A stretch of DNA of 64,000 nt from Rubripirellula sp. (GTDB lineage Bacteria > Planctomycetota > Planctomycetia > Pirellulales > Pirellulaceae): contig OZ244207.1 in the NCBI GenBank assembly GCA_965216875.1, forward strand, positions 2,400,001 through 2,464,000, given 5' to 3'. This document shows, piece after piece, positions 4,451 to 7,705 of this stretch. Made by a program: the position numbers and the translations under genes. The notes under the pieces were generated by a model. It saw only the letters and a program-made list of their open reading frames with translations, was not told where the DNA came from and did not search any database. How positions within the stretch are numbered: the first letter of the stretch is position 1; every line of letters begins with the position of its first letter.

Positions 4451-4533
4451 GCCGGAGTGGTGGAATTGGCAGACACGATAGATTTAGGATCTATTGAGCG
4501 TAGCTCGTGCAGGTTCAAGTCCTGTCTCCGGTA
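4451..4533 (+). tRNA. tRNA-Leu(TAG)
   Basis: Acceptor GCCGGAG/CTCCGGT+A; D arm TGGTGGAATTGGCAGACAC; anticodon arm ATAGA-TTTAGGA-TCTAT; long variable arm; GTTCAAGT T loop; CCA not encoded. Confidence 0.96.
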
Positions 4534-4818
4534 CTTTTTCTTCTCATGACCTCTTCTCTGCTGGTCATCTTTCAGCACCTGCCAATCTCTCTCGTTGCAG
4601 GCATCTTAAAAATAGACATGCTCGTTTTGCTGAGCATCCTTGGGACGACTCCGCTTTGGGGGCGTACTTGGCGCGACTGTACCGGTTAGCCGCCGAACAC
4701 GATCGGGTTGTATCGAGTATTTGCCTGACAAAACATTTGCGACGACCAAACGGGTGTCCTACATTTCTTTACCTGCCTGCAGCTTCGCAACCTTCATCAC
4801 GCAGTTGCGATGCTGCAT

Positions 4819-4853
4819 CGCCGTGACCAATCCCACGTTGGTCACGGCGTTTT
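4819..4853 (+). terminator. Probable rho-independent terminator
   Basis: 12-bp perfect stem cgccgtgaccaa/ttggtcacggcg followed by ttttcatttcttt. Confidence 0.7.
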
Positions 4854-4894
4854 CATTTCTTTGAAACAAGACTCTCGAGCAGGTACTTCCCAAC

Positions 4895-5734
4895 ATGCAT
4901 CGGCGCATTGTTTTCGTTTTGTTGGCCTCCTTTGCGTTCACGCAACCACTCTTTGCCGACGACAGCCAATCGATTGCTGTAGTGACTTACAACATTCGCT
5001 ACGCCAATCCGAATGACGGAAGTGATATTTGGAGCAATCGCAAAGAAGCGGTTGCCAAATACCTTTCGCCATTCGATCTGATGGGACTCCAGGAAGTCAC
5101 GCTTGCGCAGTTGCAGTTTCTGCGCGAGCACTTGCCTCAACACGCATCCTATGGCGTCGGTCGAGACGACGGAAAAAGTGGCGGCGAACACGCGCCGATC
5201 TTCTACCGCAAAGACCGTTTCAAAATGGAAGGCCAAGGAACGTTCTGGCTAAGCGCGGCCCCCGACCAGCCTGGATCCAAGGGCTGGGACGCTGCATTGC
5301 CGCGAACATGCACCTGGATGCAACTACGAGACAAGGAGACTGACAAGTTACTCGTGGTCGCCAACACGCATTTTGACCATCGTGGCAAAAAGGCTCGCGA
5401 GGAAAGTGGCAAGCTCATTGTGCAGCGACTCACGGAGCAGTTCGACGACCTTCCGATCGTGTTGCTGGGCGACTTCAATTGCCTGGCCCAGTCCGCTCCT
5501 TACGACGCAATCGTCTCCGAGTTGACGGATGCACGTGATGCCACGATCGAGAAACCGGCAGGACCCTCGAGCACGTGGAACGGGTTCAAGGAGATCATCC
5601 CAAACCGGATCATCGATCACGTCTTTATCCGCAATATCAAAGTCGAGCGGCTGGATGTCACAGACCCCAAAACAGACCAAGGCCGTTTTGCCAGTGACCA
5701 TTTGCCCGTCGAGGTGGTCGTGCTCCAGCAGTAG
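4895..5734 (+). CDS. Secreted endonuclease/exonuclease/phosphatase family protein
   Basis: Signal peptide; TYNIRY, GLQEV, NTHFDH, LGDFN, IDHVF, SDHLPV. Confidence 0.9.
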   Translation: MHRRIVFVLLASFAFTQPLFADDSQSIAVVTYNIRYANPNDGSDIWSNRKEAVAKYLSPFDLMGLQEVTLAQLQFLREHLPQHASYGVGRDDGKSGGEHAPIFYRKDRFKMEGQGTFWLSAAPDQPGSKGWDAALPRTCTWMQLRDKETDKLLVVANTHFDHRGKKAREESGKLIVQRLTEQFDDLPIVLLGDFNCLAQSAPYDAIVSELTDARDATIEKPAGPSSTWNGFKEIIPNRIIDHVFIRNIKVERLDVTDPKTDQGRFASDHLPVEVVVLQQ

Positions 5735-5822
5735 CGCGTCATGCAAAGTATGACCTCCCATCGCCGCTACAATCAAAAAGCGGCGTGTTCCTCATCCATC
5801 CCGTTATCGGTCACACCCCACC

Positions 5823-6386
5823 ATGAACAAGATCCTGCTGCTACTCATCACGTTGACTTCGATCTCACCGGCGTTCGCGGACGACTCCAACCCCAAGACA
5901 TTCAAGGCGCGAACACTCGAGCTTGTTGTTCCTAGCGGTTGGAAGTCGAAAAAGCCCTCCAGTTCGATGCGTGTCGCCGAGTTCAGCGTGGAAGGTAATC
6001 CGAGCGCTGCAAATGTTGTCGTCTTTTACTTTGGCGGCCCAACCGGTGGTGTGAAAGCCAATGTGGAGCGTTGGATTGGTCAGTTTGAAAAAGAGGGGCT
6101 CAAGCTCGAAATGTTTCAAGGCAAATGCACGGCGGGCAGCTACATCCTGGTTGACTGTGCCGGCACTTGGAACAAACCCGATGGTCCGCCCTTCGCCCGC
6201 AAAACGATTGCCACTCCGAACAGCCGAGTGATCAACGTCATCGTCGTTGAAGAAGACGGGGACAAAACCGATTACTACTTCATGAAACTGTCTGGGCACA
6301 CCGACGTGGTATCCAAGCAAACCGAGAAAATCCGCTCCGCGATCGGCGCCAAAGCCGATTCGGAGAAACCTTTCGAGCTGAAGTAG
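5823..6386 (+). CDS. Secreted hypothetical protein
   Basis: Signal peptide ending AFA-D; VPSGW...SSMRVAEF...GGVKANVERWIGQF resembles an uncharacterised PVC-type family. Confidence 0.75.
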   Translation: MNKILLLLITLTSISPAFADDSNPKTFKARTLELVVPSGWKSKKPSSSMRVAEFSVEGNPSAANVVVFYFGGPTGGVKANVERWIGQFEKEGLKLEMFQGKCTAGSYILVDCAGTWNKPDGPPFARKTIATPNSRVINVIVVEEDGDKTDYYFMKLSGHTDVVSKQTEKIRSAIGAKADSEKPFELK

Positions 6387-6407
6387 AGCTCGTAGCCGCA
6401 CCGAGTC

Positions 6408-7076
6408 TCACAGCGTGACAATCAGCTGCTCGGCGGCATTTTGCAAACCGTTTTGACTCAGTCTGGCGTCGGCTTGGATGATGACCTGGGGACGTCTTTG
6501 TTGACCGGCAAGCTCGCGATGTGCCATCGCGAAGGAATGGCGTCCGCCGTAGAACTGAGCAACGCAATCGGAAGGCTCCATTCCCTGGGACGGGACAAAA
6601 TCGGGATAGAGTGCAAGCGCGTTGGATCCACCGACAAGGTCTCCCATCAAACGTGCGAGTCGCAGCGAACTTTCTTGATCACGTGAAAGCACGATGACGT
6701 AACGTTTGAGTCCGGCGAAGAGTAGCCACGCCGCGATCGATGTAGCGCATTGCCCGATCATGTATTCGTTTCTTGCCCGCACCTCCACCTCACCCGTTTT
6801 CTTACCCTGCACAGCATCGTGAAAACGCGACAGGTCGAGTTCGAGCTGTCGCGAAATTTTCGGTCGAGGTAGCGCAAAACGCATAAAACTGGCGGGCGAC
6901 TGGTCAGCGTCATTTCTTGACTCGAAACTCGCGGCCCGTTTTGCACAGGCCTGTGAGCATCTCAAGTCTCCAGCCTCTTCAAACCAATCCGCGGCAACTA
7001 GCAACGCCTCAGACGATTCCGCCTCGGGGAATCCGGGCGGTCGCAGGTCGAGCTGCTGGAGTGCCAATTCGTGCAT
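6408..7076 (-). CDS. Hypothetical protein: TIGR02996-like N-terminus plus a degenerate terminase-ATPase-like segment
   Basis: 222-aa ATG ORF filling the gap between genes; LLVAADWFEEAGD; AAWLLFAGLKRYVIVLS, LALYPDF, RRPQVII. Homology is by eye only. Confidence 0.55.
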   Translation of the reverse strand: MHELALQQLDLRPPGFPEAESSEALLVAADWFEEAGDLRCSQACAKRAASFESRNDADQSPASFMRFALPRPKISRQLELDLSRFHDAVQGKKTGEVEVRARNEYMIGQCATSIAAWLLFAGLKRYVIVLSRDQESSLRLARLMGDLVGGSNALALYPDFVPSQGMEPSDCVAQFYGGRHSFAMAHRELAGQQRRPQVIIQADARLSQNGLQNAAEQLIVTL

Positions 7077-7126
7077 CGTGATCGCTTGGGTTCCGAAAGG
7101 GTGTCTAAGAAGACTATAAAAGGAAA

Positions 7127-7705
7127 ATGGTCCAGGATCCCCAACTCAAGATGAATTGGGCGTTCGAGTCACACGCCAAGTGCGCCCCACTCGAGTGCCC
7201 CGCTCCCTATCGAACACGTACCGCCGATGAGAGTGACGAGGCTGCATTTCTTTCCTTGATGCAAGATTGCGGCTGGGAGTTCACGCGAGAACGAACAGAC
7301 TATTGTTACGCGCGGTTGCTGCCCGGTGGTTGGTGGGTCGTGACCGATGAACTCGGAGCGATCGTTGCATCGGCGATGGGGCTGCACAATTATTCTGGCC
7401 GGTCACCACTTTCAGCGACGCTCGGATGGGTCGCTTGCTCTGCCGAGCATCGCGGCAACAAGCTCGGTTCGGTGGTGGTCTCAGCGGTCGTTGATCGCCT
7501 TTTGCAGATCGGATACCGCGAAATCGAGCTCTACACCGAGGCTTTCCGCCTGCCCGCAATCAAGAGCTACTTTCGCCTTGGATTTGTTCCCTACATCTAT
7601 GATCAACGCGTTCAAATGACCTGGCAGCGAGTTTGCGAAGAGATTAACGAACCGTTTGCCCCTGACTCATGGCCCTCAGGCAATAATGCATTTCCAGCCT
7701 TTTGA
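7127..7705 (+). CDS. GNAT-family N-acetyltransferase
   Basis: LGWVACSAEHRGNKLG acetyl-CoA motif; AIKSYFRLGF. Confidence 0.88.
   Translation: MVQDPQLKMNWAFESHAKCAPLECPAPYRTRTADESDEAAFLSLMQDCGWEFTRERTDYCYARLLPGGWWVVTDELGAIVASAMGLHNYSGRSPLSATLGWVACSAEHRGNKLGSVVVSAVVDRLLQIGYREIELYTEAFRLPAIKSYFRLGFVPYIYDQRVQMTWQRVCEEINEPFAPDSWPSGNNAFPAF

Follow-up and report, generated by a model that had tools for sequence, protein, structure and literature searches.

The open reading frame (ORF) analysed here encodes 222 amino acids (P0001) and occupies positions 6408..7076 on the minus strand of the window, the whole 64,000-nucleotide stretch of DNA that was analysed. The ORF, its coordinates and every peptide quoted for it in the initial annotation are present in the sequence. 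A divergent GNAT gene begins 50 bases from the ORF, and a 187-amino acid gene with a signal-peptide-like start is convergent with it on the opposite strand. Family profile scans place an endonuclease/phosphatase gene and a futalosine hydrolase gene at the outer flanks. None of these four flanking genes scanned as a phage gene, and no portal or head genes lie beside the ORF. The earlier statement that no phage genes are nearby thus holds for the flanking genes, although a prophage cluster with an intact terminase is located 290 kb away. The PADLOC 2.0 profiles matched none of the five proteins examined (the ORF product and its neighbours), and no defence gene adjoins. Scans for promoters, terminators and repeats around the ORF yielded nothing exceeding chance.

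A tRNA-Leu gene is located 1.9 kb from the ORF. The end of this tRNA has no second copy at the ORF locus that could represent an att site, and therefore there is no sign of recent insertion. The GC content of the ORF is 55.7% compared with 56.3% for the genome, without a GC shift. Window positions 4451-7705, from tRNA-Leu to futalosine hydrolase, comprise a four-gene block; the two genes of this block that were tested have only distant homologues (27–35% identity) in two congeners. A different gene follows the tRNA in one congener, and a different gene precedes the futalosine hydrolase in the other. The codon adaptation of the ORF is low, at the 3rd percentile of 600 long genes, by a measure that does not separate sense from antisense.

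The sole homologue of the ORF product, P0002, is 96% identical to it and unchanged at the amino acid level over residues 1–55. A contig from an algae metagenome covers the ORF locus with 59 differences and 0 gaps. The dN/dS ratio, calculated from one strain pair with 20 changes over residues 54–222 and using 40 of the 59 strain differences, is 0.26 (P 0.004; 11 synonymous and 9 non-synonymous changes), and neither a stop codon nor an indel is present. All 11 synonymous changes occur at third positions, and the 8 amino acid changes are mostly conservative. A neighbour gene has a similar ratio of 0.27. Four other reading frames yield ratios of 0.86–3.4, and the mirror frame, whose third positions coincide with those of the ORF, yields 0.31 and contains no listed ORF of 70 amino acids. 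Neutral decay among orthologues had been named in the initial annotation as evidence against a function, and the comparison of one strain pair shows no such decay. The ORF is under purifying selection; it is a real gene, intact and selected.

Among the collections searched, the gene is known from one species only. P0002 was the single genuine orthologue among 540 candidates, and the 1,497 longer candidates included none. Stretches retrieved by pattern contained no orthologue in viral (0 of 4), metagenome (0 of 406) or genome (0 of 255) sequences. The best match in 60 related genomes had an E value of 0.014, and the 10 loci inspected there hold unrelated genes. Phage records produced four rows, all of them attributed to chance, and no copy was present in the viral contigs. 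A search of 1.84 billion representatives returned two matches, the second of which, a 1,552-amino acid repeat protein, was rejected as an artefact.

The variant N-terminal head

Residues 3–48 (6933..7070, minus strand) comprise a variant helical head, delimited by alignments A2 and A4. Within it, residues 23–40 (6957..7010, minus strand) resemble the second half of the TIGR02996 module and include the ADW-x-EE-x-GD core at residues 29–37, near the N-terminus. The assignment of the N-terminus to TIGR02996 in the initial annotation stands for this core only. A profile built from the 15 TIGR02996 members of the genome aligned with residues 23–40 alone, with a score of 12.8 bits and a rank of 18 among 123,652 ORFs. 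The curated TIGR02996 model, with a cut-off of 29.05 bits, did not match the ORF, which is not among the 22 genome matches at E values up to 10. Profile positions 1–21, corresponding to the first helix, have no counterpart in the ORF, and the Arg residue preceding the core, invariant in alignment A3, is missing. Judged by its sequence, the head is TIGR02996-like over the second half of the module only and is not a member of the family.

The closest relative of the head is an 87-amino acid stand-alone paralogue in the same genome, with 46% identity over residues 3–47 and an E value of 0.002 in 123,652 ORFs. Its gene is located at L181:5312-5575 (G000:C1:6127311-6127574, where G000 is the genome of the ORF), 0.8 kb from a tRNA-Arg gene, and both variant-head genes of the genome sit near tRNA genes. 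No homologue of the paralogue was found in the databases. Similar variant heads occur in 2 of the 29 loci inspected from 251 genomes of the family and on two metagenome contigs, one of them phage-like. Of these other heads (L267:271-543, L268:1651-2097, L360:401-622 and L361:2965-3627), two are tiny proteins that stand alone, one is located at a C-terminus and one is fused to Gly-Tyr repeats, the last on the phage-like contig. Head-specific DNA patterns had no matches, and a search of 401 genomes of the phylum yielded two head matches other than self.

Canonical heads are abundant on viral contigs, where 93 distinct proteins were found in 78 loci (125 of 211 pattern stretches). The initial annotation had suggested a survey of such proteins for phage-derived C-termini; a terminase-like body occurs on none of the other 108 head proteins (93 phage and 15 host). 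The genome also contains an FtsH ternary operon (fvmX6, fvmX5, FtsH, fvmX7, MoxR and vWA) at G000:C1:7548313-7560979 (L367:3313-15979). Two canonical TIGR02996 genes, one of them fused to a WGR domain, directly follow this operon on the same strand. The ORF lies outside the operon, 5.1 Mb apart. A literature search for TIGR02996 or 'repeat-companion' heads, with most subscription papers outside its range, found no paper in full text, and the available parts of PMC13581612, PMC3113570 and PMC8195603 contain nothing on a TIGR02996-like head or on terminase decoys.

Resemblance of the body to a large-terminase ATPase core

Residues 59–221 (6414..6902, minus strand), which presumably form a folded domain, probably descend from the ATPase core of a planctomycete-phage large terminase of the PHROG 38 family, of which they would be a degenerate form. 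ESM Atlas, unprompted, listed nothing but hypothetical viral clusters and clusters in which Terminase_6N accounted for 10–15%. The scores were 0.90–0.91 for the whole protein and 0.94–0.95 for residues 55–222, from a single source whose scores for parts of proteins are uncalibrated. PHROG 38 relatives were then collected from viral contigs and from 301 genomes of the order, yielding 62 sequences of a long-insert type and 35 of a short-insert type. Alignment with the whole profile of the short-insert type is collinear over residues 59–221 with few gaps and a glocal z of 4.25. In this one alignment the blocks follow the order of the PHROG 38 ATPase profile, in agreement with the initial annotation. 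The score was equalled by 2 of 5,000 residue shuffles and by 22 of 13,794 genome windows, one of which is an intact terminase. With a combined profile in which Walker A was masked, the corresponding counts are 1 of 5,000 shuffles and 18 of 13,794 genome windows. Block shuffles, in which the local pattern is preserved, reached the score 5, 7, 15 and 34 times per 3,000 at block lengths of 4, 8, 12 and 20, showing that block order affects the fit of the body to the terminase profile. Twenty-seven unrelated families used as decoys gave z values of 2.2 or less, compared with 4.5 for the terminase.

The best pairwise match is a viral long-type terminase, aligned over residues 112–180 with 15.2 bits and an E value of 8e-5 among 97 sequences, and 17 of the 18 best pairwise matches appear to be of the long-insert planctomycete-phage type. 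The register at residues 112–162 was repeated in the HMMER, HHalign, MAFFT and pairwise runs. Residues 157–179 and 184–203 resemble the long type in detail, which suggests a deletion of about 33 residues. The amino acid identity between the body and the terminases is 10–19% in the MAFFT alignment A1. The long-type profile with its native gaps fits the body poorly (z 1.8). Longer terminase profiles gave out-of-register alignments with z values of 3.4–5.0 and, in one case, a z of 1.0. Because out-of-register fits also score z 3.4–5.0, part of the terminase score is attributed to a generic α/β pattern.

The initial annotation had called for a significant profile or structural match to terminases, and searches of Pfam, PHROG, PDB sequences and Foldseek returned nothing significant for the ORF. 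Custom terminase profiles in HMMER gave 3.5–8.3 bits, placing the ORF outside the best 40 of 123,652 ORFs, and thirty Terminase_6N loci of other types did not match it. A second terminase in the genome, of the Terminase_6N type (G000:C1:602932-603288, L029), also has no match to the ORF. Matches to a PLP enzyme in the NCBIfam, Pfam and PHROG scans, with E values of 0.12–0.17, were set aside as chance, as were the α/β-hydrolase rows that alone appeared in the PDB sequence search. The single-sequence structure model has a pLDDT of 43. The alignment-guided model matches terminases, but its input alignment consisted of terminases and had no control model, and Foldseek searches with both models were not significant. 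Two observations that were to count against the terminase link, the missing profile or structure match and the missing TIGR02996 match, were thus made, yet the more sensitive tests favour homology.

The aligned terminase columns that we take to be Walker A and Walker B correspond to residues 101–107 (ARNEYMI; 6756..6776, minus strand) and residues 195–203 (RPQVIIQAD; 6468..6494, minus strand), respectively. The former assignment is based on alignment A1 and the glocal traces, the latter on alignment A1 with a less secure register. At the Walker A site the Arg of the family is retained (R102), Lys is replaced by M106, and there is no Gly; the Lys-Thr/Ser columns are M106-I107, and no P-loop GK[TS] occurs in the ORF. 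At the Walker B site the RP pair and the second Asp (D203) are retained, whereas the first Asp is replaced by Ala202. The Walker A without GKT and the eroded Walker B described in the initial annotation are therefore seen at the aligned positions. The five columns that do not vary among 33 terminases are all retained in the MAFFT alignment, namely R102, G191, R195, P196 and D203. The C-terminal nuclease domain is absent, as had been noted, since the ORF ends 19 residues past Walker B and the next gene is on the opposite strand. The lid subdomain, which forms ring contacts in terminases, is also absent from the body. The structure model ends in a strand at residues 216–221; the assignment of these last residues to the coupling motif (motif III) was not supported, as extended profiles do not place the strand on that motif. 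Given homology, ATPase activity has very likely been lost.

An intact PHROG 38 terminase with a GpA nuclease is encoded in the same genome at G000:C1:2697385-2699826. It was found by a motif scan built on the wording of the initial annotation, and it belongs to a lambda-like prophage head-tail cluster (G000:C1:2682400-2699826, L179) that comprises terminase, portal, S49 protease, major capsid and tape measure genes. This prophage terminase likely represents the donor family of the ORF body, and its ATPase is matched in 176 of the 301 genomes of the order. Terminases of the short-insert PHROG 38 type are found repeatedly in the order and include Walker A variants. In five of their loci (L221, L226, L227, L229 and L235, in genomes G056, G272, G248, G092 and G331) an ABC-plus-acetyltransferase gene (PHROG 11143) precedes the terminase in every case, and a portal gene follows it in four, with a transposase in the fifth. 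Gene order conserved in numerous genera might point to a cluster that has been domesticated or that resembles a gene-transfer agent. The short-insert terminase cluster was not found in the genome of the ORF.

Candidate roles of the protein

A selected protein that retains a terminase-like core and has lost catalysis most likely works via binding, and the partners of the real enzyme, which the genome carries, are the most economical candidates. We therefore favour, tentatively, the explanation that the ORF product is a non-enzymatic mimic of the large terminase that would jam or flag phage packaging, with the head as an adaptor. The predicted ATPase-dead core would bind the partners of the real terminase. 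Upon infection or prophage induction, the protein would be incorporated into the packaging motor (terminase ring, portal or small subunit) as a dead subunit and lower phage yield. Alternatively, once the motor is bound, the head may deliver it to a chaperone-protease of the host, the FtsH ternary system being one example. The mimic is suggested by the selection on the gene, the presence of a prophage target, the head genes at the FtsH operon and the precedent of decoy effectors. Its weak points are the lack of a significant standard match, the singleton status of the gene, its low codon adaptation and the lack of a defence neighbour. The absent lid and the low sequence identity weigh against entry into the ring, and because the head lacks the first TIGR02996 helix, the proposed connection to the FtsH system may not apply to it. 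The specific version in which a dead packaging-ATPase bait joins the phage motor and the TIGR02996-type head hands that motor to an FtsH/MoxR ternary machine is unlikely.

Reuse of the terminase-derived fold for a host job unrelated to phage packaging, such as that of a small scaffold, delivered by the head, that binds proteins or nucleic acids, is doubtful. Such a role fits selection and homology equally well, it agrees with the ordinary host genes next to the ORF (endonuclease/phosphatase, GNAT acetyltransferase and futalosine hydrolase), and with so few residues in common with terminases the partner-binding surfaces may be gone. However, no positive sign of any host partner was seen, and a gene that is restricted to one species and carries a conflict-linked head would suit an arms race better than housekeeping.

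An origin as a phage-born accessory gene, a phage-type head joined to a mini-terminase and left on the chromosome, also appears unlikely. Its product would serve as a decoy or damper of host terminase-sensing immunity, for instance in tolerating the resident prophage. The plentiful head proteins on phage contigs agree with this origin, as do a head without helix 1 on a phage-like contig, 58% identical over residues 21–44, and another such head on a short contig that is phage-like by eye. The ORF is part of a block after tRNA-Leu that is missing in a congener, and the available part of PMC13601566 reports that T4 vs.8 activates EcAvs2 and that Upx senses catalytically dead terminases. Nonetheless, the locus shows neither phage genes nor an att repeat nor a shift in GC content, and no copy was found in the viral contigs searched.

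It is improbable that the terminase resemblance arose by chance and that the body is an unrelated α/β domain. The missing significant standard match and the high scores of out-of-register fits are what chance would produce, and the terminase family was picked with the motif of the initial annotation in hand. ESM Atlas, however, gave terminases unprompted, block order matters, decoy families fit poorly, and the register at residues 112–162 recurs across methods. A decaying, functionless prophage relic, which a singleton with low codon adaptation and a truncated fold might bring to mind, is highly improbable and already largely refuted by the low dN/dS, the third-position synonymous changes, the mostly conservative amino acid changes and a reading frame that is open despite the low identity to terminases.

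Comparison with known systems

Between the pre-P-loop helix and Walker B, the ATPase blocks of the 222-amino acid ORF product are ordered and spaced as in the long-insert PHROG 38 terminase, an enzyme of about 750 amino acids. In comparison with this enzyme the ORF has lost the Walker A Lys, the first Walker B Asp, about 33 insert residues, the lid and the nuclease, and it has an added head and sits outside a head-gene cluster. With the TIGR02996 (rpt_mate_G_obs) proteins the ORF shares an N-terminal ADW-x-EE-x-GD core followed by a variable body. Unlike theirs, its head lacks the first helix and scores far under 29.05 bits, and its body is not a leucine-rich-type repeat.

As described in the available part of their paper, Kaur et al. 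2020 (PMC7159879) proposed inactive enzyme domains with effector-associated domains as decoy effectors. The inactive-enzyme effectors of the MoxR-vWA ternary systems resemble the ORF product in joining a short adaptor-like module to a dead captured domain. In the part of the paper available, their dead domains are copies of enzymes of the cell itself, the head of the ORF is not mentioned, and the word 'terminase' is absent from the main text. The ORF is located outside any operon of this kind. The mimic, if true, would represent a bacterial 'integrated decoy' derived from a phage enzyme and provide a first handle on the role of the TIGR02996 head.

Phage T4 vs.8, as far as the available part of PMC13601566 describes it, is a homologue of the terminase ATPase domain that stands alone and has intact motifs; like the ORF product it is small. 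In contrast to the phage-encoded vs.8, which retains Walker A and Walker B, the ORF is chromosomal, has lost both and carries an added head. The same part of that paper describes Avs1-3 and Upx as host proteins that deal with the terminase ATPase, as is proposed for the ORF product. The ATPase domain alone suffices to activate Avs2 and Upx, and activation of Upx mostly persists with catalytically mutated terminases. Avs proteins bind the terminase via TPR-type sensor domains, and Upx is modelled as binding an unfolded state. The ORF product, by contrast, would be a copy of the terminase and lacks a STAND domain and any recognisable effector domain.

In the sources as available, known terminase-directed immunity uses dedicated sensors (Avs and Upx), the small terminase copies found in print are phage genes, and the literature on terminase decoys and co-opted terminases yielded nothing on a host-encoded copy. 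The finding is limited to a single gene of a single species, and the statistics for its homology are weak. If the mimic is true, a selected, dead terminase core on the side of the host would represent a different strategy, in which the phage's own fold serves as poison or bait. The idea is directly testable because a prophage with a terminase of the likely donor family is present in the same genome. The anatomy of the ORF is a variation on the theme of an adaptor with a dead captured domain, or of a mini-terminase, and is unusual in its host-side location.
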